Source: a bacterium (GTDB lineage: Bacteria; UBA8248). Taken from it: DNA of 64,000 nt. The translations under genes and the position numbers were made by a program. The DNA lies in assembly GCA_963692865.2 (NCBI GenBank), contig OY843592.1:2464001-2528000 (forward strand), given 5' to 3'. The notes under the pieces were generated by a model. The model was not told the DNA's origin. It saw only the letters and a list, made by a program, of their open reading frames with translations, and made no database searches. This document shows, in pieces, positions 149 to 24,250 of the stretch; within the stretch, counting starts at the first letter, position 1; every line of letters begins with the position of its first letter.

Positions 149-1381
149 CTAGCGCATGGGATCTCCCGGATCCGCGGCTGCCTGATGAAGAGCCGAATCC
201 CCCTTCGTCCCGGGGAGCCATGAAAAGGCGACCAGACTCCCCAGGCAGGCGATGCCGATTGCTCCGAAAACGAACTCCAGGCCGTATGCGTCCGCCAGTA
301 TACCCAGAAAAAACAATCCCAGGCCAACAAAAATCTGGTTGGCCGTAAAAATAACGCCGACGACGCTTCCCGCCAGCCTGGGCGGACTGACCTCGAACCC
401 GTATGCGAAAATCACCGAGCGCATGGAGATGAGAAAAACGCCGACCGACGCGATGCAGGCGTAGAGGAAAATTCCCGTGCCCGCGTGGGGAACCAAAAAC
501 ATCGCGATCCCGCCGGCGGCGACCCCGATGAAGAGAATCAGCTTTCGGGAAACCCTGTCGGAGAGATAGCCGACTATCGTCTCGGGAAATATGGAGGCCG
601 CCGAATACACGCCGAGCGCAAGGCCCAGGGTGCTCGGACCCACGCCGTATTTTCTCACCAGCAGTATGGGCAGAAAAATCGAAACCACGTTGTGGGCGAG
701 CGTCCGCACGCCCGAGAAAACGCAGGCCCCCATCATGCCGGGGTTCTTGATGAGCGCATCCACGAAGTTGCGCGGGATGAGGGAAGAGCCGGGCTTTTGC
801 TTGCCGCTGAGCTGGAAGGGTTCGAGATAAACCCACAAAAGCATCGCCGTCACAAGAAGGGGAATCGTGTTCGCCAGCAGGACGCCCCGCCAGGTCATGA
901 CGAGGAGCAGATAGCCCGCGATGATGGGCGCCAGCGTCTGCCCCAGGTTCGCGCCCGTGCCGTGTACGCCCAGCGCGAAACCCTTGCGGTTGCCGAAGCG
1001 CATTCCCAGCAGGCCCATCGATGGCGGGTGCCAGGTGTGCGTCGCAAGGCCGCTCAGCCAGATAATGGGGGCCAGGGTGAGAAACCCCGCCGCGAGGCTC
1101 GCACCGCCGTAGAACAGCGCGACCGAAGCCATGCACCCGACGAGCAGCCATTTCCCGCCGCCGTAGGCGTCGATGACGTAGCCCGCCCCCACGCTGCTGA
1201 AGGCGCTCATCACGGCCCTGCCCGTGAAGAGGAGGCCCACCTGGGTGAGCGTGAGGCCCAGATCGGCGGTCAGATAGGGGATGACGGGCCCCAGAACGCC
1301 CTGGAACCAGTGTTCACAGGCGTGGCCGGTGGTGAGCAGGGCGAGGATTTGCCATTTCTTCAAGGTTTCATTCTCATGCAA
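149..1381 (-). CDS. MFS transporter
   Basis: 410 aa with about 12 hydrophobic segments. MFS motif-A-like loops GYVIDAYGGGK and GYLSDRVSRK. Confidence 0.9.
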   Translation of the reverse strand: MHENETLKKWQILALLTTGHACEHWFQGVLGPVIPYLTADLGLTLTQVGLLFTGRAVMSAFSSVGAGYVIDAYGGGKWLLVGCMASVALFYGGASLAAGFLTLAPIIWLSGLATHTWHPPSMGLLGMRFGNRKGFALGVHGTGANLGQTLAPIIAGYLLLVMTWRGVLLANTIPLLVTAMLLWVYLEPFQLSGKQKPGSSLIPRNFVDALIKNPGMMGACVFSGVRTLAHNVVSIFLPILLVRKYGVGPSTLGLALGVYSAASIFPETIVGYLSDRVSRKLILFIGVAAGGIAMFLVPHAGTGIFLYACIASVGVFLISMRSVIFAYGFEVSPPRLAGSVVGVIFTANQIFVGLGLFFLGILADAYGLEFVFGAIGIACLGSLVAFSWLPGTKGDSALHQAAADPGDPMR

Positions 1382-1691: not shown

Positions 1692-2432
1692 GTGGTTATC
1701 GGCGACAGACTGCAGGCGGTGAAGAAAACGCGAGTGTATGAGGCCATCGTCGCCCAACTCACGTCCTTGATACTCGAAGGCGAGCTCAAGCCTGGCGAGA
1801 AGCTGCCCTCCGAGCGGGAGTTGTGCGAGCAGTTCGGCGTAGGCAGAAACTCGGTTCGCGAAGCCACGCGCTCGCTGGAATCCGCCAGGCTGGTGGAGAC
1901 CAGACAGGGGGAAGGAACCTTCGTCACGGCGGCTCCCGAGTCCATGCTCCCCATGATTTCCGAAAAAGTCTCCTCCGACGCGGCGAACGGCATGCACGAC
2001 CTCTTCGAGGCGCGCATGGTTCTCGAGCCCCAAATCGCCGCCCTCGCCGCAGAGCGCGCGACGGACGCGGAGTTGGCCATGCTCGAAGATGCCATTCGGC
2101 GGCAGCATGATGCGATAGAGGGCGGAGGCCTTGGTCTCCAGGAAGACACCCAATTTCATTTGGGACTCGCAGAGGCCGCCAGGAATCAATTCCTGCACCA
2201 TCTCCTGAACAGCCTGCTCAATTCCCTGAGCGAGATGCGGGAACGCTCGCTTCGTGATAAAAGCGTTCGCTTCCGCTCCTGGGAAGCGCACCGGAAGATT
2301 CTGGATGCCGTCTCGGACAAGGACCGGAACAGGGCGATGGCGGGGATGATCAGCCACTTGGTCGAGATTGAGGGGAACGAAATCGAATCCCACGTGAAAC
2401 TGGAACATCTGGCGGAACTGGAATCGGCATGA
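1692..2432 (+). CDS. FadR/GntR family transcriptional regulator
   Basis: N-terminal wHTH LKPGEKLPSERELCEQFGVGRNSVREA...GEGTFV and C-terminal FCD domain (DTQFHLGLAEAARN). Confidence 0.95.
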   Translation: MVIGDRLQAVKKTRVYEAIVAQLTSLILEGELKPGEKLPSERELCEQFGVGRNSVREATRSLESARLVETRQGEGTFVTAAPESMLPMISEKVSSDAANGMHDLFEARMVLEPQIAALAAERATDAELAMLEDAIRRQHDAIEGGGLGLQEDTQFHLGLAEAARNQFLHHLLNSLLNSLSEMRERSLRDKSVRFRSWEAHRKILDAVSDKDRNRAMAGMISHLVEIEGNEIESHVKLEHLAELESA

Positions 2433-2506: not shown

Positions 2507-3697
2507 GTGAGCGTCATATCGTTTGAAGTCATCTACAGAGGAATTTTCCAGAAAAGCCTTGCGGTGAAAATTTCACGGACGTTGATCCTCGCGGCCGTGA
2601 AGGAAGGAAAACCGGGAATCTCCTTCGGGCGCTACAGCGATTCGCCCGAGCGCAACGGGATTCCCGCCAAGCAGTTCGGCTACATCGCGGACAACGAGGA
2701 AGAACTCGAAACGGTGGCCGCGCAATACGAGCCCAAGCAGGTGGACATCTCCATCTGCGTGGACGACACGCTTTGCAAGGGCGTGGAATCCTGGGCGTGG
2801 TACGGTCTTCAGCCCATCAACGCCGTCACGAAGCCCGGCGGCACGCTGATCGTCACCTCGAACCAGAAAGAAGACGAACTCGTCCAGCACATCCACCGCA
2901 AAGACGAGCCCTACAAACTCGCGATCATCCCGGGCGAGGCGAGCTTCGCCGGCCTCTGGGTCTACAAGGACGACGGCACCGACGCGCGCTGTCTGGCGGC
3001 GGCCCTCAAGGCAGAGCCGAGCATGTGCTCCATCGCCTCTCTGGAGTCGGCCATCCGCGAGAACATCGGCTCGGAAACGCACGTGGAAGCCGCGCGCGAG
3101 GTGTATGAAGACCTGCGCCCGGTCGAAATCGAACCGGGGCAGGGCAACGACGAGGTTCCCTTCACGTTCGAACTCCTCAAGTGGCACGAAATGCGCCAGG
3201 GCGTCGTCATCGACGGCGTGGGCGGACACGAGGGTTTCCGGGGCGGCGAGGGCGGCTACGAGCCGGGGCGCAACCCGTACTTCAAGAAGTGGTCGACGCG
3301 CACCATGCGCCCGGTCGTCTCGTTCGATAAATGCACGAAATGCACGCTGTGCTGGATCGCGTGCCCGGACACCTGCTTCGACGTCACGCCGGACGGCTAC
3401 TTCGACGCCAACATGGAGGCGTGCTGCGGCTGCGGCGTGTGCGAGGCCATCTGCCCGGTCAAGGACTGCATCACCATGGTGAACGAGGTCGTCTTCGAGG
3501 AACGCGACAGCCAGTGGCAGATGTGGAACGAGAACAAGGAAGATTACGACAAGTACATGGACGACAAGATCACCACCGGCAAGATAGAGGGCCGCCACCC
3601 GATCACAGGCCTGGGGCAGGCGTTCTCCGGCATCGGCATCGAGACGGGTCACAACCCCGAGACGGCCAGGATCAAAACCCTTCAAGACCTCAAATAG
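2507..3697 (+). CDS. 2-oxoacid:ferredoxin oxidoreductase fused gamma/delta subunit (oxalate oxidoreductase delta-like)
   Basis: Gamma-like N-terminal domain plus two 4Fe-4S motifs (CTKCTLCWIACP, CCGCGVCEAICP). Lacks the GxGGQG glycine loop. Confidence 0.88.
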   Translation: MSVISFEVIYRGIFQKSLAVKISRTLILAAVKEGKPGISFGRYSDSPERNGIPAKQFGYIADNEEELETVAAQYEPKQVDISICVDDTLCKGVESWAWYGLQPINAVTKPGGTLIVTSNQKEDELVQHIHRKDEPYKLAIIPGEASFAGLWVYKDDGTDARCLAAALKAEPSMCSIASLESAIRENIGSETHVEAAREVYEDLRPVEIEPGQGNDEVPFTFELLKWHEMRQGVVIDGVGGHEGFRGGEGGYEPGRNPYFKKWSTRTMRPVVSFDKCTKCTLCWIACPDTCFDVTPDGYFDANMEACCGCGVCEAICPVKDCITMVNEVVFEERDSQWQMWNENKEDYDKYMDDKITTGKIEGRHPITGLGQAFSGIGIETGHNPETARIKTLQDLK

Positions 3698-3715
3698 GAC
3701 AATAGGAGCGAACTG

Positions 3716-4933
3716 ATGGCGACAGCTACCGAACAACAACAAGGTGCGGGAGTTCATCTCCTCACCGGAAGCGAGGTGATGGCCCACGTGTGCCGCCTCG
3801 CCGACGTGGATGTCATCACGGCGTATCCGATCCGGCCGTATGACACCGTGATGCAGTACGTCTCGAAATTCATCGCCGAGGGCGAGTTCGACGCCGACTA
3901 CATTCCGGCGGAGAGCGAGCACGGCCAGTTCGAGATCGTCAAGCACGCCTCGGCCTGCGGCGCGCGCGTGTTCACCGGATCGAGCGGCGTGGGCTGGCTC
4001 TACGCGATGGAGCCTCTGGCCGTTACGGCGGGGCTTCGCCTGCCGATGGTGGCCCTGGTCGGCTGCCGCGCTTTGGATGACCCCGGCGCGTTCGGCACCG
4101 AGCACAACGACGCGATGCTCGTGCGCGATCTGGGCTGGATGATCAACTTCCCCGACACGGCGCAGGAAGTCGTCGAGCTCGGCCTCATGGCGTATCGCGT
4201 GGCCGAGGATTCGAACGTGTACCTGCCTTGCGCCATCGCCATGGACGGCGCGTTCCTCACGCACAGCCAGGCGACGGTGCGGCTGCCCGGGCAGGAGCAG
4301 GTCGACGAGTTCCTCCCGCCCTATGACAGGGGCGACCTGCTGCTGCACCCGGACAACCCCATCACCATCGCGCCCCAGGCGAACGAGGACTGGCTCATGG
4401 AAGTCCGCCGCCAGAGCAGCGAGGCGGCGAAAAACTCATACGGCGTGCTCAAGGAAGCCCACGCCGATTTCTGCAGAATCTTTGGCGTGGACACGGACCC
4501 CTTCCTCGATGAATACATGACCGAGGACGCCGACGTCGTGCTCTGCGGCATGGGAACGCTGAGCCTGCCGGTGAAGGTCGCCATCCGCGAAATGCGCAAG
4601 GAAGGCAAGAAGGTCGGCATGCTTCGTCTCAAATGGTTCCGCCCCTTCCCGACGGAAGAGTTGCGCGCGTCGCTCTCGCGCTTCAAGGCGGTGGGCGTCA
4701 TCGACCGCGACTACTCGTTTGGTTCTCCCTATCATGGTGGTATAGTGTTCAACGAAGTGAAAGCCGCCATGTACGGGGCGGACAAGGTGCCTCACATGAA
4801 AGGGTTCGTCTGCGGCCTCGGTGGCCGTGAGGTGCTGCTCGAAGACGTCAAACACATGGCCGACAAGGTCATTTCCATGGGCCAGAACGATGCGGCCGAC
4901 AACGAAGTCGACTGGATCGGCGTGAGGGACTAA
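3716..4933 (+). CDS. 2-oxoacid:ferredoxin oxidoreductase alpha subunit (oxalate oxidoreductase alpha-like)
   Basis: YPIRP, ESEHG, GARVFTGSSGVG, FRPFP and GLGGRE motifs. Confidence 0.92.
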   Translation: MATATEQQQGAGVHLLTGSEVMAHVCRLADVDVITAYPIRPYDTVMQYVSKFIAEGEFDADYIPAESEHGQFEIVKHASACGARVFTGSSGVGWLYAMEPLAVTAGLRLPMVALVGCRALDDPGAFGTEHNDAMLVRDLGWMINFPDTAQEVVELGLMAYRVAEDSNVYLPCAIAMDGAFLTHSQATVRLPGQEQVDEFLPPYDRGDLLLHPDNPITIAPQANEDWLMEVRRQSSEAAKNSYGVLKEAHADFCRIFGVDTDPFLDEYMTEDADVVLCGMGTLSLPVKVAIREMRKEGKKVGMLRLKWFRPFPTEELRASLSRFKAVGVIDRDYSFGSPYHGGIVFNEVKAAMYGADKVPHMKGFVCGLGGREVLLEDVKHMADKVISMGQNDAADNEVDWIGVRD

Positions 4934-4936
4934 ATC

Positions 4937-5965
4937 ATGGCTGAAACCTCTGAATACAACATCGGAACACAGGAACTTCCCTTGATGGGGAAGGTGAACG
5001 CCATTCCCGAGAAAGCGGTGGAGGAGTATTTCACCAGCGGGCACAGGACGTGCCAGGGCTGTGAGAGCGCGCTCATCATGCGCCTCATGGCCAAGGCGGC
5101 GGGCCCTCGCTCCATCATCCTGGGCAGCACGGGCTGCATGTACGTGGCGAACACCACCTACTACAGCACTCCCTGGGTCGTGCCGTGGATGCACACGCAG
5201 CTGGGTTCGTCCGGCTCGGCGGCGACGGGAACGGCGGCGGCGCTTCGCGCGCTGATGCGCAAGGGCAAGATGAAGGAAGAGCCCATCAACGTCATCGCCT
5301 TCTGCGGCGACGGCGGCGGCATCGACATGGGCGTCTCCTCCATATCTGCGGCGCTCATGCACGCGAAGTACAACCTGGCGATCATCTGCTACGACAACGA
5401 ATCGTACGCGAACACGGACATCCAGATTTCGGGCGCATCCCCCTGGGGCGCGAACACGACGTTCACGCCTCCGGGCAAGAAGTTCCGCATCATGCACGAT
5501 TGTTGGAAGAAGAACATCGCCGCCATGTACGCGGTCGGCCACACGCGCTGCAACTACGTGGCGACGGCGGACGCCTCCTACCCCGCCGACTTGATCGACA
5601 AGGTCCGCAAGGCGCTGGCCGTGAAGGGGCCCGCCTTCGTGCACACGCTCGACCCGTGCCCGAAAGGGTGGGACTACGATCCCTTCTACTCCCACAAGCT
5701 CGGCGAGCTGGCCGTGGAGACGGGTCTCTTCCCGCTCTGGGAGATGACGGACGGAGCGCTCACCTACACGGGCATTTCCGCGCGCCAGGTGTACGGCAAG
5801 CGTGGCCGCAAGCCGGTGCGCGAATATCTGGAGACGCAGGGCCGCTTCCACCACTTCGTTGAGGAAGACTACGAATACTTCCAGAGCGAGGTGGACAAGA
5901 TGTGGGACGACTGGATGGTTCCCGGCGTGATTCCCTTCAAGGTGAACAATCCGAGCAAGAAGTAG
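4937..5965 (+). CDS. 2-oxoacid:ferredoxin oxidoreductase beta subunit (TPP-binding)
   Basis: GHRTCQGC, TGC, GDGGG...DNESYANT TPP motif and DPCPKGW. Confidence 0.92.
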   Translation: MAETSEYNIGTQELPLMGKVNAIPEKAVEEYFTSGHRTCQGCESALIMRLMAKAAGPRSIILGSTGCMYVANTTYYSTPWVVPWMHTQLGSSGSAATGTAAALRALMRKGKMKEEPINVIAFCGDGGGIDMGVSSISAALMHAKYNLAIICYDNESYANTDIQISGASPWGANTTFTPPGKKFRIMHDCWKKNIAAMYAVGHTRCNYVATADASYPADLIDKVRKALAVKGPAFVHTLDPCPKGWDYDPFYSHKLGELAVETGLFPLWEMTDGALTYTGISARQVYGKRGRKPVREYLETQGRFHHFVEEDYEYFQSEVDKMWDDWMVPGVIPFKVNNPSKK

Positions 5966-5998: not shown

Positions 5999-6028
5999 GG
6001 CGGGGCCCTTCGGGGCCCCGCCCTTTTT
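5999..6028 (+). terminator. Rho-independent terminator
   Basis: GGCGGGGCCC-TTCG-GGGCCCCGCC 10-bp stem with UUCG tetraloop followed by CTTTTT, after the oxidoreductase operon. Confidence 0.85.
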
Positions 6029-6046
6029 CGCTCATGCCGAGCGCAA

Positions 6047-6961
6047 GTGTTCAAAGAGCAGAAGATGAACGAAGTCGGGGAAACGAGAAGAGGGAAAGAC
6101 GAAGCCGCGATGGTGCACGTGTCCGCCGGCCCGTTTCTGATGGGATCTGACATCGGCAACGCGGACGAGCGCCCTCGGCGCGAGGTCACCCTCGACGCTT
6201 TCTGGATCGACAAACACTGCGTGACGAACGCGCAGTACCGCGCCTTCTTGGAGGAGACCGAGGCGTTTCAATCGCCCCCCTCGTTCGCGAGAGACGATTT
6301 CGTGGGGCCCGGGCAGCCCATCGTCAGCATCAGCTGGGAGGAGGCGAACGCCTACGCCCGCTGGGTGGGCAAGCGCCTGCCGACCGAAGCGGAGTGGGAG
6401 AAGGCGGCGCGCGGAACGGACGGCCGCAAATATCCCTGGGGGGAGGACGAACCCTCTCCCGAGCGGGCCGTCTACGCGAGTACGGAAATGGAAATTCACT
6501 GCCCGAGCAATGTGGATGAATTCGCCGAAAGCGCCTCTCCCTATGGTTGCGTGCAGATGGCGGGCAACGTCTTCGAGTGGGTGGCGGACTGGTTCGACGG
6601 GTTCTATTACCAGACGGGCCCGGCGGAAAACCCCAAAGGCCTGGATAAGCCGACCTTCGAGGTGGCGATGGCGCGGGTGCCCGTGTTCGCCGTTCCGGGC
6701 GGGGGGAATCTGAGCCTGGGCGAAGTCAAGCGCGGCGAGCGCTACGAGATCCTCCACCGCGACGAGGACAGCTACAAGATACGCTTCGGGAACACCGAGG
6801 GCTGGCTGCCGCGCAGGGCGGGCTACGCATGGACGGCCAAGGCCGCCCGGGGCTGCGGCTGGGACTACATCGAAGACAGCCTCAGGTGTTCGGCGAGAGA
6901 GGGCTTCGAGCCCTGGTACAAGAATTTCAACATCGGCTTCCGGTGCGCGATGGACGCCTGA
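6047..6961 (+). CDS. SUMF1/FGE-sulfatase-fold protein with an inserted SH3b-like domain
   Basis: GPFLMGS, DERP, VTNAQY, RLPTEAEWEKAARG, MAGNVFEWV and IGFRCA motifs. About 55-aa SH3-like insert before the C-terminal part. Confidence 0.85.
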   Translation: MFKEQKMNEVGETRRGKDEAAMVHVSAGPFLMGSDIGNADERPRREVTLDAFWIDKHCVTNAQYRAFLEETEAFQSPPSFARDDFVGPGQPIVSISWEEANAYARWVGKRLPTEAEWEKAARGTDGRKYPWGEDEPSPERAVYASTEMEIHCPSNVDEFAESASPYGCVQMAGNVFEWVADWFDGFYYQTGPAENPKGLDKPTFEVAMARVPVFAVPGGGNLSLGEVKRGERYEILHRDEDSYKIRFGNTEGWLPRRAGYAWTAKAARGCGWDYIEDSLRCSAREGFEPWYKNFNIGFRCAMDA

Positions 6962-7304: not shown

Positions 7305-8831
7305 TCAGGCCGAGGTGCCCGCCCGTGAAACCCTGAACTTGAAGATCATCGGCACGAGCGGCAGGACGAACAGGATGACGGAAACCATCATCAGCACCGC
7401 GGCGATGGGATGTCCGGCGAAGTCGAAGAAGATGCCGGGGCTCCCGTGGCTCATGATCATGCTCTGGCGGAAGGTGCGCTCCGTCAATCCTCCCAGAACC
7501 AGCGCCAGCACCATCGGGGCGAGGGGATAGTCGAGTTTGCGGAACACGTAGCCGACCGCGCCGAATATGAACATGAGATAGACGTCGAACATGTCCTGCG
7601 TCGGTGAGAACCCGCCGACAGCGCAGACGACGAGGATGATCGGGGCGAGAATCGTCATGGGCATCCTGAGCATCCAGATGAAGATCGGAACCGCGAAAAT
7701 GGCGACGATGACCGCCATCGTGTTCGCGATGTAGAGGCTCCCGGTAAGGCCCCAGACGAACTCCGCGTTTTCGACGAACAGCCGGGGACCCGGTACGAGT
7801 CCCCACACGAACAGGGCGCCGAGCATCACCGCCGTGGTCGGTGAACCCGGAATTCCCAGCGTCAGCATGGGGAGCATCGAACCCGTGCTCGCCGCGTTGT
7901 TGGCGCACTCGGGCGCCGCGACCCCCTCGATGGTTCCCTTGCCGAATTCTTCGGGCGTTTTCGAAAAGCGTTTCGCGATGCTGTAGCTCATGAAGCTCGC
8001 GGGCGTAGCGCCCGCTGCGGGCAGCATGCCGACGAAAAACCCGAGCAGGGAGCCTCTCATGATGGTGGGGGCGCATTTCGTGAGACCCTTGAGGGTCGAG
8101 ACGATCTCTTGCGCGCCGAGCTTCGCCTGGTATCTCTCCTTCGTCTTGAAGCCTTCTTCCAGGGTGTAGAAAATTTCCCCGACGCCGTAGATGCCGATGG
8201 CCAGCACGAGGAAATTGATGCCGTGATAAAAACCCGTGATGCCCCCGAATATGAGGCGCGGCGAGCCGCTCACGATGTCGGTTCCCACGGTGGACATGAG
8301 CAGCCCCAGCATGGTGGCGATGAGCGTCTTGAGGGGGCTTTCACCGCCCAGTCCCGCGAAGGTGGCGTACGCCAGCAGCACGACGGCGAATTCCTCGGGC
8401 GGGCCGAAGCGCAAGGCGAACTCGGCCAGGGGCGGGGCGAAGAACGTGAAGAGGACGATGGATAAAGTCCCGCCGATGAAGCTGGCCACCGCCGCCGTCA
8501 CAAGGGCGTCAGCGGCTTTCCCCTTTCTCGCCAGCGGATAGCCGTCGAACGTGGTCGCGACGGCCGTGGACGCTCCCGGGATGTTCAGCGTGATCGAACT
8601 GATGGCGCCGCCGTACATGGCCCCGTAGTAGATGGCGGCCAGGAAGATGATGGCGCTCGTCGGCGGAACGGCGAACGTGATGGGCAGCAGGATGGCGACC
8701 CCGTTCACCGAACCCAGCCCCGGCATCGCGCCTATGGCGACGCCCAGGACGACGCCGAACAGCGCCATCAACAGGTTTTGCGGCGAGATCGCAACACCCA
8801 GCCCGTAGAATAGATTACCGAGAATCTCCAA
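7305..8831 (-). CDS. tctA: Tripartite tricarboxylate transporter permease TctA
   Basis: GAMPGLG, YGGAISSITLNIPG, DGYPLARKG, EGVAAPECANNA and LTLGIPGS motifs. Confidence 0.95.
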   Translation of the reverse strand: MEILGNLFYGLGVAISPQNLLMALFGVVLGVAIGAMPGLGSVNGVAILLPITFAVPPTSAIIFLAAIYYGAMYGGAISSITLNIPGASTAVATTFDGYPLARKGKAADALVTAAVASFIGGTLSIVLFTFFAPPLAEFALRFGPPEEFAVVLLAYATFAGLGGESPLKTLIATMLGLLMSTVGTDIVSGSPRLIFGGITGFYHGINFLVLAIGIYGVGEIFYTLEEGFKTKERYQAKLGAQEIVSTLKGLTKCAPTIMRGSLLGFFVGMLPAAGATPASFMSYSIAKRFSKTPEEFGKGTIEGVAAPECANNAASTGSMLPMLTLGIPGSPTTAVMLGALFVWGLVPGPRLFVENAEFVWGLTGSLYIANTMAVIVAIFAVPIFIWMLRMPMTILAPIILVVCAVGGFSPTQDMFDVYLMFIFGAVGYVFRKLDYPLAPMVLALVLGGLTERTFRQSMIMSHGSPGIFFDFAGHPIAAVLMMVSVILFVLPLVPMIFKFRVSRAGTSA

Positions 8832-8913
8832 TTTACGCGGCCCTTAGGACAAACCTTGCCCCTACGATTACAGGGAATTCCCTAACGGATGGGCAAAGGA
8901 AACAGTGAAATAA

Positions 8914-9405
8914 TCAGTTCCAGTAAAACAGGAATTCCGCATACCCCTTCGGCAAGGGGATGATCAAAAATTTCTCGAAAATGTAATACACCACGACGGG
9001 GACGCCAACCGATACGCCGACGCTCGTCTTGAGGTTGTGCCCCCCGACGATGAACAGGCAATAGAAGATGAACAGGGCGGCGGAAAAATACACCGATATC
9101 ACGCCGATCAGGAGAATCATGAGCATACCGGGCAGGCCGACGCGCAACAGGTCGCCCAGGCCCTCCCTGCGCATGAACACTCCCGAGTCGGTCATGGAGG
9201 CCTCGCTTCGCCGCGAACGAAACAGCGACTGGAGCAACACCATCAAGGACACGGCGGCGATACCCAAAGAGAGCCAGAAGGGGAGGAACCCCCCTCCTGG
9301 CCCTTCCTTCGGTAGTATGCCGACAGGTAGTTCCGTAGCTTTCCAGGCGACGCCGAGGCTGACAAAAATCAGCCCGATGGCGACTATCCTATCCGCCCGC
9401 TGCAT
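8914..9405 (-). CDS. tctB: Tripartite tricarboxylate transporter small subunit TctB
   Basis: 4-TM protein with GPGGGFLPFW and C-terminal FEKFLIIPLPKG, located between tctC and tctA. Confidence 0.9.
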   Translation of the reverse strand: MQRADRIVAIGLIFVSLGVAWKATELPVGILPKEGPGGGFLPFWLSLGIAAVSLMVLLQSLFRSRRSEASMTDSGVFMRREGLGDLLRVGLPGMLMILLIGVISVYFSAALFIFYCLFIVGGHNLKTSVGVSVGVPVVVYYIFEKFLIIPLPKGYAEFLFYWN

Positions 9406-9424
9406 CTAGATTCTTCTCCAAAAG

Positions 9425-10429
9425 CTAATTCTTCAGCAATCCCATGCCCTTGAGCAGCTTCTTGTGCTTCACGTCCTCCGAAGCGAAGAACTTGCCCAGA
9501 GGGGCGCCGCTCAGGCAGGCGCGGTTCAGCGCCTTCTTCGAGGTGTAGTCTTTCCACTCCTTGGAGTTGCACAGCTTGTTGAACAAATCGGTGTACCACT
9601 TCACAGCGTCCTTGGAGATGCCGCCGGGCGCGTTGATGCTGCGCTGCATGAAATACACGAGTTGCGGCTGGCCCAACTCCTTGAACGTGGGGACTTCCTT
9701 GAAAGCGGGAATACGCTCGGGCGTCAACGCGGCTATCGGCTTCATCTTGCCGGGATAGTGCGGCAGCCCCTCGGAGGGGTTGTTCACCGTCGAGTCGACG
9801 TGTCCGCCTGCGAGGTTTTTCGCCACGGTGCCGCCGCCCCGGAAAGGTACGTAGGTGATCATGCCTTTCAGGCCATAGGCCTGCATGAGCATGTTCGTGA
9901 CGAGCTGGTCCTCCTGCATTTTGCCCGTGCCGCCCATGGTCCATTTCCCTTTCTTGGCTTTCACGGCCTTCACGAAATCATCGATGTTCTTGATCCCCGA
10001 CTTCGTATTGACCCAAAGGAGGAACGTGTCCATGGCCAGCCGGTATACCGGCGTGAGCTTCGTGTAGTTTACCGGCAGCTTCCGCAGGGCGGGGGTGGTG
10101 AAGAAGCTGTTCAGCGTCACGAGGATGACGTGCGGGTTCCCTTTCTTCGAGAGCAGGTAGAGCATCGCCTCGGCGCCGGAGCCGCCTTTCTTGTTGATCG
10201 GAACCAGCGGCTGCGGCGACCATTTGTTCTGGGTGACGATTTTCTGCATGAGACGGGCGATGCGGTCCGCGCCGCCTCCTTTGCCCGCCATGATGATGAA
10301 CTCAATCGGCCGCGTCGGCTTCCATGCAGCAAGAGCCTGCGTGGTCCCCAGCGCAACGACGATGAACAGACTCAGCGCAAGGGTGAGGAACGGAATAGCG
10401 CGTCTCGAACCTTTCAGCGATTTCATCAT
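9425..10429 (-). CDS. tctC: Tripartite tricarboxylate transporter substrate-binding protein (TctC/Bug)
   Basis: Signal peptide, then WKPTRPIEFII..GGGAD, NKKGGSG and YVPFRGGG motifs. Start set at ATG 10429 after AGGAGG. Confidence 0.92.
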   Translation of the reverse strand: MMKSLKGSRRAIPFLTLALSLFIVVALGTTQALAAWKPTRPIEFIIMAGKGGGADRIARLMQKIVTQNKWSPQPLVPINKKGGSGAEAMLYLLSKKGNPHVILVTLNSFFTTPALRKLPVNYTKLTPVYRLAMDTFLLWVNTKSGIKNIDDFVKAVKAKKGKWTMGGTGKMQEDQLVTNMLMQAYGLKGMITYVPFRGGGTVAKNLAGGHVDSTVNNPSEGLPHYPGKMKPIAALTPERIPAFKEVPTFKELGQPQLVYFMQRSINAPGGISKDAVKWYTDLFNKLCNSKEWKDYTSKKALNRACLSGAPLGKFFASEDVKHKKLLKGMGLLKN

Positions 10430-10691
10430 ATTCCCTCCTTTTATGCTGCGGAATGAAGTGCCTGCAACAGCGAAAATGATACCGCGATAGAATTTTGTTT
10501 GAAGATGACGAATTCCCCCCACTCTCGTCAAAGCTGGAACTTCTCGAAAAGCAATCGTTCTGTAAGGCTATGGTTCCCTGAAGTTTACCATGAAGCAACG
10601 CGCTTCTCAACGAGGCGATTTTCACGGGCGGGGCGCAGGTGGGGTTAATCGTATTATTCGCGCCGCATGCAGCAGGAAAAGCGGGAGTTAT

Positions 10692-19231: not shown

Positions 19232-20923
19232 TCAGAAAACCGGCGATTCCCGGTAGACGCCCCAGACCGACTTCAGCTTCTCGACGATATCTCCCATCGT
19301 GGCGCCCTCGCGCACGAGTTCGACCGTGACGGGCATGATGTTCCGCGTCTCGTCCTTCGCGACCGAGACGAGCTCCTCCAGGAGCATACCGACCCTGGCG
19401 TCGTCGCGTTCGGCGCGCACCCTCCTCGTCCGCGCGATCTGCCGTTCGGCGGTCGTGGAGTCATAGGGGTGGGTCTCGATCTCCTGGTTCTCGTCCTCCT
19501 CGACCAGGGTGTTGACCCCGATGACCGGTTTCTCGCCGGATTGCTTGCGCAGGGCGGTCTCATAGGCGAAGTCGGCGATCTGCTGCTGGAACCAGCCTTC
19601 CTCGATCAGTTTGATCGCGCCGCCGTTTTCATCCACGTAGTCGAGAATCTCGAAAATGCGCGTCTCGAACTCGTTGGTCAGGCTCTCGACGTAGTAGGAA
19701 CCGCCCACCGGATCGATGACGTTGGCGACGTTCGTTTCCTCCGAGATTATCTGTTGCGTGCGCAGGGATATCCGCATGGCGTCCTCGGTCGGAATCGCGA
19801 ACGCCTCGTCGTAGCCGTTCGTGTGCAGCGACTGGCAGCCGCCGAGGACCGCGGCGAGGGCCTGGAACGCGGTGCGCACGATGTTGATGCGGAATTGCGG
19901 CTTGGTCAGGGTCGCGGCCGCGGTCTGGCAATGGAAGCGAAGCCGCATCGATTCGGGGTTCTTCGCGCCGAAGCGCTCTTTCATGATCCTGGCGTAGCAG
20001 CGGCGCAGCGCCCGGAACTTGGCGACCTCCTCGAACAGGTCCGCCTGCGAGACGTAGAAGAAGGCGAGCCTCGGCGCGAACTCGTCGACGTCCATGCCGG
20101 TCTTGAGCACCTCCTCCACGTAGACGATCAGGTTGGCCATGGTGAAGGCGGCCTCCTGCAGGGGCGAGGCGCCGGCTTCGGAGATGTGATAGCCCGAGAT
20201 GTTGATCGGGTTGTAGCGCTTCATGTTGCGTCCGCAGAAGGATATGCAGTCGCGCACGATGCGGACCGAGGGCGCGATGGGATAAATGAACTCCTTCTGC
20301 GCCATGTACTCTTTCAGGATGTCCGCCTGGATGGTGCCCGGGAGCCTGTTGAGGTCCAGGCCGCGCATCTGCGCCAGCGCCACGTACATGGCGAGCAATA
20401 TCCACGCGCTGGGGTTGATGGTCATCGACACGGAGATGTTCTCCAGATCGATGCCGTCGTAGAGCGCCTCCATGTCGGCGAGCGTGTCCACGGCCACGCC
20501 TTCTCGGCCCACCTCGCCCTCGCTCATCGGGTGGTCGGAGTCGTAGCCCATGAGCGTGGGCATGTCGAAGTCGGTCGACAGTCCCGTCTGGCCCTGCGAG
20601 ATCAGGTATTTGAAGCGCTTGTTGGTGTCTTCGCCGGTGCCGAAACCGGCGATCTGGCGCATGGTCCACACCCGGCTGCGGTACATCGTCGGGTAGGGCC
20701 CGCGCGTAAAGGGGTAGCGCCCCGGCAGACCGATGTCCTCGATCGGCGTCTCCGCGATATCGGCGGCGGTATAGACGCGCTGCACCGGAAAATCGCCGGT
20801 GGTGAAGAATTGCTCCTTGCGCTCGGCCTGTTTGTTCAGGAAGGCGGCGACCTCGTTGCCCTCCCAGTCCTCGATCTCGCTCCGTAGTTTCTCAAGCGGA
20901 TTTTGAGTGAACGTCTCGTTCAT
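19232..20923 (-). CDS. hcmA: 2-hydroxyisobutyryl-CoA mutase large subunit (acyl-CoA mutase N-terminal domain)
   Basis: PFTRGPYPTMY, WTMRQIAGF (Ile at the specificity position), STDFDMPT and QSLHTNGYDEA motifs. No B12-binding domain. Confidence 0.88.
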   Translation of the reverse strand: MNETFTQNPLEKLRSEIEDWEGNEVAAFLNKQAERKEQFFTTGDFPVQRVYTAADIAETPIEDIGLPGRYPFTRGPYPTMYRSRVWTMRQIAGFGTGEDTNKRFKYLISQGQTGLSTDFDMPTLMGYDSDHPMSEGEVGREGVAVDTLADMEALYDGIDLENISVSMTINPSAWILLAMYVALAQMRGLDLNRLPGTIQADILKEYMAQKEFIYPIAPSVRIVRDCISFCGRNMKRYNPINISGYHISEAGASPLQEAAFTMANLIVYVEEVLKTGMDVDEFAPRLAFFYVSQADLFEEVAKFRALRRCYARIMKERFGAKNPESMRLRFHCQTAAATLTKPQFRINIVRTAFQALAAVLGGCQSLHTNGYDEAFAIPTEDAMRISLRTQQIISEETNVANVIDPVGGSYYVESLTNEFETRIFEILDYVDENGGAIKLIEEGWFQQQIADFAYETALRKQSGEKPVIGVNTLVEEDENQEIETHPYDSTTAERQIARTRRVRAERDDARVGMLLEELVSVAKDETRNIMPVTVELVREGATMGDIVEKLKSVWGVYRESPVF

Positions 20924-21896
20924 GGTCTCCCTCTCCTTCGAGCGTCGTCGAGAGCAATTCCTCCGCCAGCGTATAGGGGTCGCTCTCCCGGCGCAAAAGC
21001 TGTTCGGCGAGTTTCGCGCTCGCCGCCGCCGTAGCGGCGTGAAATCGATCATACAACAGGTTTTCGGCGGTCTTGCGCAGCCGGAATTCGGCGATGCTTT
21101 TGCGACGCGCCCGGCCCGCATCGGAATCGGAGGTCAGGCCGCGATGCCGGGCAATCGCCCCCAGCAGTTCGTCGAGCCCTTCGCCGGAAAAAGCGCTGGC
21201 GCCTATTACGGGGGCGACCCAGCCGGATGGTTCCTGCCCGCCCGCTCCGAGCGTCAGCATCTGCTTCAAGTCGGTCAGCGTCCGGTTGGCGTCGCTCCGG
21301 TCGCATTTCGACACCACGTGGATGTCGGCTATCTCCAGAAGGCCCGCCTTGATCGCCTGTACCTCGTCCCCGAGGCCGGGCGCGGAAACCACCACCGTGG
21401 TGTGGGAGGCTTGTACGATCTCGACCTCGTCCTGGCCCACGCCGACGGTTTCCAGAACGATGACCCCGAAACCGGCGGCGTCGAGGATATCGACCGCCTC
21501 GAGGGCCGCGCGCGCCATGCCGCCGGTCGCCCCGCGCGTCGCCATGCTGCGGATATAAACGCCGGGGTCGGCGCTCAAGCCGCTCATGCGGATGCGGTCT
21601 CCCAGGATAGAGCCGCCGGAATACGGAGAGGACGGATCAACCGCGATGACGCCGACCTTCTCGCCGCCGGCGCGCAGCCTTTGCGCCAACTCACTGACGA
21701 GCGTGGATTTTCCGCTGCCGGGCGCCCCGGTGATGCCGACGACGTGCGCTCCTCCGGCGAGTTTGTGTATCCGGGCGAGCGCGCCGCGCGCTTCCGCCAG
21801 GCCCGACTCCGCGCGCGATATGAGGCGGCCTATCGCGGCCGGCTCGCCCCTTTGAACGCGGGCGATGAGTTCCACGGAGGGGAGGTAGACGCCCAT
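20892..21896 (-). CDS. meaH: MeaB-like G-protein chaperone
   Basis: GITGAPGSGKST, AVDPSSPYSGGSILGDRIRM, ETVGVGQDE and KAGLLEIAD motifs. Confidence 0.9.
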   Translation of the reverse strand: MGVYLPSVELIARVQRGEPAAIGRLISRAESGLAEARGALARIHKLAGGAHVVGITGAPGSGKSTLVSELAQRLRAGGEKVGVIAVDPSSPYSGGSILGDRIRMSGLSADPGVYIRSMATRGATGGMARAALEAVDILDAAGFGVIVLETVGVGQDEVEIVQASHTTVVVSAPGLGDEVQAIKAGLLEIADIHVVSKCDRSDANRTLTDLKQMLTLGAGGQEPSGWVAPVIGASAFSGEGLDELLGAIARHRGLTSDSDAGRARRKSIAEFRLRKTAENLLYDRFHAATAAASAKLAEQLLRRESDPYTLAEELLSTTLEGEGDHERDVHSKSA

Positions 21897-23326
21897 CAGC
21901 GGTTTTCTTCATCCAGTTGGGTTTGCATCTGCTGGAAGACGGCGCGATCGTCGATCACGCGGCGCGCCTTGAAATCCGTTCGGGGGATCGAACCCGGCTC
22001 GGCGACTTCCACGGCCGTCCGCAGCCCGAGCACCATCTGCAACTTGTGCGCCACCTCCGCGCGGAACCGGGCGGCGGCCTCGGGCTCCGCGAAGGTCCCG
22101 GCGTCGGCCTCGACGCGCAGCAGCAACTCGTCCATCGCCGCCTCGCGGCTGATCACGATCCGGTGCTCCCCGCCGTAGTGCGCCAGTTCGTTGAGCGCGG
22201 CGTCTATCTCGCTCGGATACACGTTCTCGCCGCGGATCGTGAACATATCGTCGATGCGCCCGAAAATACCGTGCGGCAGGCGCGGATAGGTGCGTCCGCA
22301 CGGGTTCGGTTCGTCCACCCACCGGGCCAGGTCCCCCGACACCAGGCGGATCATCGGCTGGGACGCGCGTTCGAGATGGGTGTACACGGGCGTTCCCCGC
22401 TCCCCGTAGGGTACGCGGCGCATGGTTTCGGGATCGCATACTTCCGTGTAGACGACGTCCTGCCAGCAGAGCATTCCGTCCGTCTGGGCCGAACCCGCCA
22501 CGTTCATCCACGGACTCATCTCGGCCATGGAGCCGCTGTCGTAGACCCTGGCCCCGTAGATTCCCTCGATGCGCTCGCGGATGGCCGGTATCGAGGCGCC
22601 GGGCTCGCCGGAGAAGAACATGACCTTGAGCTGCATGTCGCGAGGGTCGATGCCCTCGTCTTCCGCGACCTGGGCGAGATGCAGGGCGTAGGTCGGCGTA
22701 CCGTAGAAGGCGGTGGGCTTGAGCATGTGGAGCCATTGCACGCAGCGCGCGGACATGCCGGACGCGCCTGCGCCGAACGGGAAAGCCTTTGCGCCGAGGC
22801 GCTCCGCGCCGGCGAGCGCCCCCCAGCTCCCCATATAGAGGGAGAATACGGCGGCGACGCAAACCGTGTCGCCTGGGCGCAGGCCCATGCCCCACATGAC
22901 GCGCGCATGCGCGTTGGCGATGGCGCGCCAGTCGTTCCGCGAGATGGCGAAGGCGGTGGGCCGCCCGGTCGTGCCGCTGGTGCCGTGGATGTGAAAAACG
23001 TCCGTTTCGTCCACGCAGAGGTAATCACCGAAAGGCGGCCGGCGCTCCTGCGCCTCGCGCAGGTCCTTCTTGGTGAGTACCGGCACCTTCTCCTCGAAGT
23101 CCTCAAGCGACTTGAGCAGGCTCGGGTGAAACCCGGCCTCGTCCCATTTGCGGCGGTAGAGGGGCGCATTCTCGTAGGCGTAGGCGCACACTTGTCCGAG
23201 GCGCTCCAGGACGGCCTTCTCCCGCTCTCCCGCCGGCATCGTCTCCCGCCGGGGGAACCAGTAGCGGCTCTCCGTAGCGGGCAGAAAGTTCTCGTCGTAA
23301 TCGGGCGGGAATGACCAGGATTCCAT
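21896..23326 (-). CDS. hcl: Phenylacetate-CoA-ligase-family enzyme, probable 2-hydroxyisobutyrate-CoA ligase
   Basis: HGTSGTTGRP, SGEP and GRIDDMFTIRGENVYPSEI motifs. Located inside the hcm operon. Confidence 0.82.
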   Translation of the reverse strand: MESWSFPPDYDENFLPATESRYWFPRRETMPAGEREKAVLERLGQVCAYAYENAPLYRRKWDEAGFHPSLLKSLEDFEEKVPVLTKKDLREAQERRPPFGDYLCVDETDVFHIHGTSGTTGRPTAFAISRNDWRAIANAHARVMWGMGLRPGDTVCVAAVFSLYMGSWGALAGAERLGAKAFPFGAGASGMSARCVQWLHMLKPTAFYGTPTYALHLAQVAEDEGIDPRDMQLKVMFFSGEPGASIPAIRERIEGIYGARVYDSGSMAEMSPWMNVAGSAQTDGMLCWQDVVYTEVCDPETMRRVPYGERGTPVYTHLERASQPMIRLVSGDLARWVDEPNPCGRTYPRLPHGIFGRIDDMFTIRGENVYPSEIDAALNELAHYGGEHRIVISREAAMDELLLRVEADAGTFAEPEAAARFRAEVAHKLQMVLGLRTAVEVAEPGSIPRTDFKARRVIDDRAVFQQMQTQLDEENR

Positions 23327-23336
23327 GGGTAGCGGT

Positions 23337-23744
23337 TCAGCGCGCGCCGCGCTCCTCCACGAGGCGGGTCAGCGTGTCGATAATCGTCTGCGGCGGCGTA
23401 TCCTGCAGCAACACCTTGCTTACCCCCATTTTCTTGAGCTGGACCACGTCTTCGTCCGGCATGACGCCGCCGGCCACGACGATCATGTCGTCGGCGCCGC
23501 CGGCCCTGAGCAGGTCGAATATCCTGGGGAACACGGTCATCTGCACGCCGGAGAGGAGGCTTACGCCCAGCACGTCGACGTCTTCCTGCACGGCGGCGGT
23601 CACCACCTCTTCGGGCGTGCGGTGAAGGCCGGTGTAGATCACGTCCATGCCGGCGTCGCGCAGGGCGCGGGCGACGATCTTGACGCCCCGGTCGTGACCG
23701 TCGAGACCCACCTTCGCCAGCAGGACGCGAATTGGCTGACTCAT
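23337..23744 (-). CDS. hcmB: Cobalamin-binding small subunit of the acyl-CoA mutase
   Basis: AKVGLDGHDRG (DxHxxG), SLLSG and GG motifs. Confidence 0.9.
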   Translation of the reverse strand: MSQPIRVLLAKVGLDGHDRGVKIVARALRDAGMDVIYTGLHRTPEEVVTAAVQEDVDVLGVSLLSGVQMTVFPRIFDLLRAGGADDMIVVAGGVMPDEDVVQLKKMGVSKVLLQDTPPQTIIDTLTRLVEERGAR

Positions 23745-24250
23745 GAGGCGTTCCTCATCAGGCTCTGATTTGTATGCGAAAAACAGCATAAAACCTGCAC
23801 AAAAAGCGCCATGGTGTCAAGGTGAAACGGAATCGGCCCGGGGGAGGGAACGATCAACCGGACGCTCCTGCGCACCCGAAGACACTCGTGGTGAAGCGGC
23901 AGGGATAATGGCGAACGGCCTGGAAAAACCGCCGGTTTTCGGGGGAACAACGTATTTCCTGCCCGTCCTGCCCGGCCCGCCCGCCGCTTGACGCCGCCGG
24001 CGCCCGTCGCATAGGATTCGCCTCGCCCCATCATTTATGGATATGGAGCGGCCCGCCGGACGGCGGCCCGGAAGGCTCCGGGTCCGTGCGGCGGGATACG
24101 ACGACGGAGAGAACTCGAACCCACGAAGAAGCGCGCCGCAAAACCCATTCCGGTTTCGTGATCCGACCGTCGATGCGAACAGACGCGCCCGCCTGAAACG
24201 GCGAAATTGCGCCCGTTTCCATGGACGGGCGCCGAAAGGGAGGAATCCGC

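Follow-up and report, generated by a model that had tools for sequence, protein, structure and literature searches.

The question raised by this locus is what substrate is oxidised by an enzyme that resembles the oxalate oxidoreductase (OOR) of Moorella thermoacetica, carries an altered active-site loop and has homologues filed under the name of a pyruvate enzyme. The enzyme is encoded at positions 2507–5965 of a 64,000-nucleotide stretch from a bacterium of the GTDB lineage UBA8248 (contig OY843592.1, positions 2,464,001–2,528,000); the whole stretch is called the window below. The operon is real and intact. It consists of a fused gamma/delta subunit gene with a GTG start (2507–3697, 396 amino acids (aa)), an alpha subunit gene (3716–4933, 405 aa, domains I–II) and a beta subunit gene (4937–5965, 342 aa, domain VI). 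All three genes are on the plus strand, with intergenic gaps of 18 and 3 nt, and the open reading frames (ORFs) match exactly the coordinates, and the order gamma/delta, alpha, beta, that were described in an earlier note on this DNA. Pfam recognises a 4Fe-4S dicluster domain in gamma/delta, POR_N (197 bits) and PFOR_II (99 bits) in alpha, and TPP_enzyme_C in beta. The answer favoured here, with somewhat better than even confidence, is a coenzyme A (CoA)-independent variant of OOR, belonging to the crown group of a sister clade of OOR, which would convert oxalate to two CO2.

Family placement of the three subunits

Each subunit finds its best NCBIfam match in an OOR equivalog (alpha, NF045791; beta, NF045792; delta, NF045790), and the second-best matches are PorA (329 bits against a cut-off of 550) and PorB (280 against 405). 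TIGR02175 scores 28.5 bits against a cut-off of 81. When alpha was compared with the PDB, OOR came first (5c4i_A, E 1.7e-99), followed by the pyruvate ferredoxin oxidoreductase (PFOR) of M. acetivorans (9bt4_B, E 1.8e-64). Beta also matches OOR first (5c4i_C, E 4.1e-84), where OOR reads ...YDNESYANTGIQ, and the M. acetivorans PFOR second (9bt4, E 3.2e-59). Gamma/delta aligns to 5c4i_B over residues 10–331 (E 8.3e-19). The AlphaFold2 model of gamma/delta (pLDDT 71.5) has OOR delta as its best Foldseek match (5c4i_E, E 1.5e-19), and the PorC gamma subunits 2raa and 9bt4_E come next.

The gamma/delta protein is composed of domain III (about residues 1–210), a linker, ferredoxin domain V and a C-terminal extension (332–396). 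At residue 10 it reads YRGIFQKS, and its two CxxCxxCxxxCP motifs (276 and 306) correspond to two [4Fe-4S] clusters. The canonical gamma motif is GxGGQG, and no G.GG.G motif was found anywhere in the whole gamma/delta protein. The gamma domain gave no match to the Pfam POR domain (PF01558) even at E 0.01, so that Pfam sees the ferredoxin domain alone. When the gamma part was searched by itself against the PDB, the sole match was Moorella OOR delta (E 3.2e-5, 26.8 bits), with nothing else up to E 10. The divergent gamma domain that starts with YRGIFQKS and lacks the GxGGQG loop, as the earlier note had described it, is therefore present in this protein.

Homologues were searched among 1.84 billion cluster representatives. 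Three of these mark the lineages around the window: P0121 (62% identical) belongs to the window's clade, P0128 (45%) to a second lineage, and P0130 (42%) to true OOR, the last passing the OOR cut-off with 583 bits. The first alpha tree contained 102 rows, 20 with Arg in the YPI.P motif and 82 of the YPITP type. The 20 Arg rows group together (SH-aLRT 99), apart from all 82 rows of the YPITP type, and this YPIRP clade divides into true OOR and a branch that joins P0128 to the window's clade (support 100). In the second tree, with 35 rows and rooted on eight YPITP rows, the YPIRP clade has support of 100/100 and forms a ladder with support of at least 100/96, in which true OOR is followed by L100 (the locus on the P0128 contig), then by L102, and then by the crown clade with the window. 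On this phylogenetic evidence the window's enzyme is assigned to a sister clade of Moorella-type OOR, not inside OOR, and outside PFOR and the 2-ketoisovalerate enzymes (VOR). The earlier note had proposed an OOR sister clade and had named branching inside PFOR or VOR beforehand as the outcome that would contradict it; no such branching occurred in either tree.

The names given to the homologues point to a different enzyme, a CoA-dependent ferredoxin oxidoreductase for pyruvate (or 2-ketoisovalerate). Where the sources name the 120 nearest homologues, they call them "pyruvate ferredoxin oxidoreductase" or "hypothetical protein", and oxalate is never mentioned, in line with the mis-annotation that the earlier note had expected. 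JGI, by contrast, gives the name oxalate oxidoreductase to some true-OOR entries. Besides these names, the second-best NCBIfam matches to PorA and PorB speak for a pyruvate enzyme. However, both scores are under their cut-offs, the Thr of YPITP is replaced by Arg, gamma has no Pfam POR domain and alpha branches outside all YPITP rows. A CoA-dependent pyruvate enzyme is thus considered very improbable. OOR itself reportedly undergoes suicide inactivation by pyruvate, to go by the title of work by Pierce et al. from 2017.

Active-site changes in the crown clade

The alpha subunit has YPIRP at residues 37–41 (Arg40), RALDDPGAFG at 118–127 (Arg118, Asp122, Ala125) and Gln221. In a HMMER alignment to 5c4i_A, RALDDPGAFG lies opposite RTLDPPGDFG of Moorella OOR. 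Arg109 of OOR is kept as Arg118, Pro113 is changed to Asp122 and Asp116 to Ala125, and YPIRPY is identical in both proteins. Both the YPIRP motif and the loop change, with Asp turned to Ala and a new Asp upstream, had been read from the sequence in the earlier note. A passage of PMC5020499 describes oxalate binding by Arg31-alpha of the unique YPIRP motif in Moorella OOR, a bait-and-switch mechanism carried out by Arg31 together with Asp116, and activity that does not require CoA. The YPIRP arginine and the lack of CoA use, which the earlier note had given for Moorella OOR as needing verification, are stated in the same source.

YPIRP and RALDDPGAFG are exact in all 120 of the best alpha homologues, which are 63–92% identical to the window's alpha. 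To these were added 80 fetched loci, which together with the window make a set of 81 loci whose ORFs were called and clustered. Counts from this set are lower bounds, as many loci end at contig edges and no alpha was called in L013, L016, L024 and L081; gamma/delta and alpha were each found in 77 loci and beta in 70. YPIRP together with the loop RALDDPGAFG stands in 77 of the 79 alphas called, and the other two are adjacent true-OOR-type paralogues. Since the loop is invariant in the homologues, it is not a chance substitution. In a set of 119 true-OOR sequences, Asp116 is present in 114, and the remaining five are without the region or variant; YPIRP together with RTLDPPGDFG was found in 104, the rest being fragments or single variants. 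In a 105-row alignment, Arg occurs in the YPI.P motif only in rows of the YPIRP clade or in fragments, and the other rows mostly have YPITP or near variants.

The beta subunit carries a thiamine diphosphate (ThDP)/Mg site (GDG at 124, DNESYANTDIQ at 153) and the Cys residues of the proximal cluster (CQGC at 39, Cys67, PCP at 240). A clade-specific Asp161 replaces Gly145-beta of Moorella OOR, so that NTG becomes NTD. The changed position is two residues past Asn143-beta (5c4i_C numbering), which we take to be an active-site residue. Among the 72 betas in the loci, 70 read NTD within DNESYANTDIQ and all of these are crown-type, and the two OOR-type betas read NTG as Moorella OOR beta does. The change from Gly to Asp161 is a feature of the crown clade and is new here.

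Gamma/delta also has features that distinguish the crown clade. Its mean column identity is 66% in 35 sequences from several phyla, and R42, Y43 and D45–K55 are invariant among them. A Trp-rich insert with invariant E94, W96, W98, G100, Q102, P103 and N105 lies opposite a 9-residue gap in Moorella OOR. The 65-residue clade-specific C-terminal extension (332–396) contains invariant S335, Q336, W340 and H364. The extension and the Trp-rich insert are crown-clade features and new here.

Two basal loci bear on the order of these changes. L100, on a contig with 39% G+C, has split gamma (216 aa) and delta (154 aa), an alpha with FPIRPY and LDDPGNFA, and a beta with NTG. The segment L100:370-7168 carries this basal lineage together with an OxlT-type major facilitator superfamily (MFS) transporter (419 bits) and an Lrp/AsnC regulator. 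At L102:4061-6826 a short fused gamma/delta (309 aa, without the C-terminal extension) is accompanied by an alpha with LDDPGAFG and a beta with NTG. Because L102 has the Ala loop with beta NTG, the loop changed first, and the Gly-to-Asp change of beta and the extension of gamma/delta followed later, in the crown clade. A strict coupling of beta Asp161 to alpha Ala125, which is seen in all 70 crown betas, was also considered and was rejected, as L102 pairs Ala with Gly.

Distribution and gene context

Relatives of the query alignment were found in at least 560 species genomes of a GTDB-based collection. The best 80 of these relatives all belong to this clade and all come from metagenome-assembled genomes (MAGs), labelled as Nitrospinaceae/Nitrospinota, Tectomicrobia, Acidobacteriota, Dehalococcoidia, Myxococcota and Rokubacteria, and further as Gammaproteobacteria, Xanthobacteraceae, Dormibacterota, Armatimonadota and Verrucomicrobia. 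Alpha homologues from different phyla are 62–67% identical. Within the window's genus, an intact copy was found in 18 of 22 genomes, and in one further genome the copy is fragmented. No match above the OOR cut-off was found in 41 related genomes. The loss of Asp116 could alternatively mean that the enzyme is a degenerate or non-catalytic paralogue without its catalytic Asp. Against this, all cofactor motifs are intact, and the cross-phylum identity of alpha and the column identity of gamma/delta reflect very strong purifying selection. The number of species genomes with relatives and the intact copies within the genus argue in the same direction, and a dead paralogue is very improbable.

The host genome (4.15 Mb, 97% complete, contamination 6.69%) contains one copy of the enzyme. 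In this genome oxc (196 bits against a cut-off of 739), frc (263 against 504) and the OxlT equivalog (95 against 335) all remained below their cut-offs, so the operon would be the host's only recognisable oxalate route. A haem-copper oxidase subunit I (513 bits) was identified in the host, and a search of its genome for the acetyl-CoA synthase beta domain found none. The host is therefore not an acetogen and is probably able to respire oxygen. Six RNA sequencing runs hold 7–9% of the sampled words and sponge metagenomes hold 12–20%, figures that do not count as evidence of expression or habitat. About 18 family-III CoA-transferase paralogues and about 15 acetolactate-synthase-like ThDP enzymes were seen in the same genome, none above the frc or oxc cut-off. 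Two of the ThDP-enzyme matches, C5:10327-12012 and C4:44643-46214, are nearly equal in score and ORF length to those at 360804-362489 and 1225866-1227437 on C1, and the small contigs C4 and C5 may be duplicates or come from a second strain.

A GntR/FCD-family transcriptional regulator gene (1692–2432, plus strand; Pfam GntR and FCD) is located 74 nt upstream of gamma/delta and likely controls the operon. Homologues 36–45% identical to it stand directly upstream in 61 of the 81 loci, across phyla. An OxlT-type MFS transporter is encoded in 34 of the 81 loci, and in 32 of these 34 it lies downstream of beta, on the same strand and within 5–342 nt. All 33 of the transporters scanned match the OxlT equivalog TIGR04259 at E ≤1e-20, and two members score 484 and 486 bits against its cut-off of 335. 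The loci with this transporter are labelled Acidobacteriota, Myxococcota, Dormibacterota and Xanthobacteraceae. By tblastn, no OxlT-type transporter was found near the true-OOR-type loci L101, L035 and L072, nor in L102. As the gene was not found near true-OOR-type loci either, its absence near a given operon is uninformative.

In the window, a tripartite tricarboxylate-type transporter is convergent with the operon (7305–10531), comprising TctA (7305–8831; Pfam TctA 512 bits), TctB (8914–9405; Pfam TctB) and TctC (9425–10531; Pfam TctC), all on the minus strand. The operon has Tct genes as neighbours in 13 of the 81 loci including the window, and Tct and OxlT-type genes occur together in none of the 81. 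Three of the 13, outside the window's lineage (L070, L078 and L083), have TctC-TctB-TctA directly after beta, with 40–44% identity to the window for TctC and 52–56% for TctA. TctABC is thus a candidate substrate importer in the window's lineage. On the other side of the operon, an MFS transporter gene (149–1381, minus strand; Pfam MFS_1 176 bits) is divergent from the regulator. It gave no match to TIGR04259, the oxalate/formate antiporter family, and its best NCBIfam scores are ≤42 bits. Its homologues are found in 11 of the 81 loci, all in the window's lineage, and it is thus lineage-specific.

A hairpin of 10 G-C pairs followed by CTTTTTCGCT (5999–6032, plus strand) begins 34 nt past the beta stop codon. 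It is terminator-like by consensus and is predicted to end the operon. The consensus scan alone gave seven sites where 6.1 were expected, and this site has the strongest stem. Past the hairpin, a gene at 6047–6961 (plus strand) encodes a 304-aa protein with an FGE-sulfatase domain at residues 20–190 and about 110 residues after it without a Pfam match; it is kept at the same place in 9 of the 81 loci, all of the window's lineage. Farther away in the window (19232–23789, minus strand), a methylmalonyl-CoA-mutase-family large subunit, a MeaB GTPase, an AMP-binding (phenylacetate-CoA-ligase-like) enzyme and a B12-binding small subunit are encoded.

Other neighbours differ between lineages. In 11–13 Acidobacteriota loci, an AMP-forming ligase, a PanE/ApbA-family reductase and a class V aminotransferase are encoded upstream. 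PanE2 of M. extorquens was used as an oxalyl-CoA reductase, as a passage of PMC8411744 reports, and the upstream genes would accordingly fit an assimilation branch from oxalate to glyoxylate to glycine. A formamidase-like amidase of the FmdA/AmdA family, below the equivalog cut-off, adjoins the OxlT-type transporter in 8 of the 81 loci (including L034, L038, L040, L041, L042 and L055), where it could release the substrate from an amide, for instance oxamate or formamide. In Acidobacteriota MAGs, a true-OOR pair (RTLDPPGDFG, NTG) stands beside a GntR-gamma/delta-alpha-beta operon (L035:1744-11295 and L072:1972-11264; L084 is cut at 8669). This pair is accompanied by a 215-aa protein without a Pfam match and by a 610-aa GltD-like FAD/NAD(P) oxidoreductase with Fer4 motifs.

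Proposed reaction and comparison with known systems

The enzyme is of the (alpha-beta-gamma/delta)2 type, with ThDP and three [4Fe-4S] clusters. In the CoA-free reaction proposed here, oxalate would enter the cell probably through TctABC in the window's lineage and through the OxlT-type MFS transporter in most other members. It would be bound by alpha Arg40 of YPIRP and by Arg118 and attacked by the ThDP ylide, and two decarboxylations and two one-electron transfers would follow without CoA. The two low-potential electrons would pass the enzyme's own ferredoxin domain to a ferredoxin-like acceptor. With the movable Asp116 absent, its electrostatic role may be taken by beta Asp161 (most plausibly) and/or alpha Asp122. 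Expression of the operon would be governed by the GntR/FCD regulator. Of the earlier interpretation, the sister clade, the mis-annotation and the loop change are now observed, and CoA independence and the substrate are carried forward as predictions.

Several observations weigh against oxalate as the substrate or against an OOR in the strict sense. None of the subunits passes the OOR cut-offs (alpha 369.4 against 500 bits, beta 339.2 against 590, gamma/delta 91.2 against 230). Every member of the clade has Ala in place of Asp116, a residue with an important part in the mechanism of Moorella OOR, and the Ala loop of L102 with its beta Gly means that the loss of Asp116 does not have to be made good by beta Asp161. 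In alpha, 33 positions are fixed at ≥95% within each clade and differ between the clades, including P/D122, D/A125 and, near the conserved Gln221, E224, W226 and R231. In beta, 59 positions differ between the clades, in a comparison with only two OOR-type betas. In L035 and L072, a true-OOR-type alpha/beta pair adjoins the crown-type operon, and this suggests non-redundant functions. Finally, the window and its close relatives have no OxlT-type transporter.

The main rival explanation keeps the scaffold and the CoA-free chemistry and assigns the enzyme to another small anionic C2/C3 acid, such as oxamate, glyoxylate, mesoxalate or tartronate semialdehyde. In that case the changes in the loop and in beta would adjust the specificity instead of standing in for Asp116. 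The invariant loss of Asp116 with the gain of Asp122 and beta Asp161 would suit such an enzyme, as would the 33 alpha differences, several of them beside Gln221, the two types side by side in L035 and L072, the window's lack of an OxlT-type gene and the amidase beside the transporter in eight loci. However, both substrate-binding arginines are kept. The commonest transporter of the operon passes the OxlT equivalog cut-off in the two members with 484 and 486 bits, and the basal L100 also has a transporter of this type. As the true-OOR paralogue in L035 and L072 has a GltD-like FAD/NAD(P) partner, the two types could differ in electron acceptor instead of substrate. The context of the other clade members, with an OxlT-equivalog gene after beta, favours oxalate over oxamate, glyoxylate or mesoxalate. 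A different acid is accordingly possible but rather unlikely, and oxalate is kept as the preferred substrate.

To our knowledge, only one oxalate oxidoreductase has been characterised, and it comes from a strictly anaerobic acetogen. In the collections searched, the present clade is far larger than characterised OOR, and its hosts have aerobic respiratory genes. In the literature on oxalate oxidoreductase a description of this clade was not found, although the primary OOR papers or their supplements may mention homologues without Asp116. A more far-reaching proposal, which is offered tentatively and is doubtful as a whole, is that the crown clade is a mechanistically distinct CoA-free OOR, with the mobile Asp replaced by a fixed beta Asp161 and alpha Asp122, and a major uncounted oxalate sink. 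If so, this sink would be located in oxygen-respiring bacteria (soil Acidobacteriota, Myxococcota, Chloroflexota and MAGs labelled Nitrospinota or Tectomicrobia) and would be neither of the frc/oxc nor of the Moorella type, and the counts of "PFOR" in genome surveys would be inflated by the clade. If oxalate is oxidised, surveys that use frc, oxc or NF045791 miss the clade, and surveys of COG0674-type alphas that remove only NF045791 hits miscount it as PFOR/OGOR. Such a filter, with COG0674-type alphas taken as PFOR/OGOR minus NF045791 hits, is used in a methods table of PMC13147460. The clade also offers a natural test of whether the two-step decarboxylation depends on Asp116.

Among known systems, Moorella thermoacetica OOR (EC 1.2.7.10; 5c4i, 5exd, 5exe) is the nearest, and each subunit of the window's enzyme matches it best in both sequence and fold. 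The three-gene layout with fused domains III and V, alpha of domains I–II and beta of domain VI is common to both. They also share the YPIRP Arg, the equivalents of Arg109 and Gln211, the ThDP/Mg motif and all Fe-S Cys motifs, and the gamma domain of both is without the Pfam POR signature. They differ in the loop, which is LDPPGDFG in Moorella OOR and LDDPGAFG here (Asp116 to Ala, Pro113 to Asp). The window's gamma/delta has in addition the 9-residue insert ESWAWYGLQ and the 65-residue C-terminal extension. Moreover, the host of Moorella OOR is an acetogen, whereas the window's host encodes a haem-copper oxidase, and its genome yielded no acetyl-CoA synthase.

The four-subunit PFOR of M. acetivorans (9bt4; PorA/PorB/PorC/PorD) belongs to the same superfamily, with the same domain set, ThDP and three [4Fe-4S] clusters. 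In contrast to the window's enzyme, which has Arg, no POR match and a fused gamma/delta, it has the Thr of YPITP, its gamma and delta subunits are separate, and its gamma domain can be recognised as POR. The POR gamma domain of PFOR binds CoA, as stated in a passage of a review (PMC13768988). The route of oxc, frc and OxlT serves the same purpose as is proposed here, oxalate catabolism, and an OxlT-type transporter is common to many members of the clade. Its chemistry, however, is unrelated, being CoA-dependent and non-oxidative.

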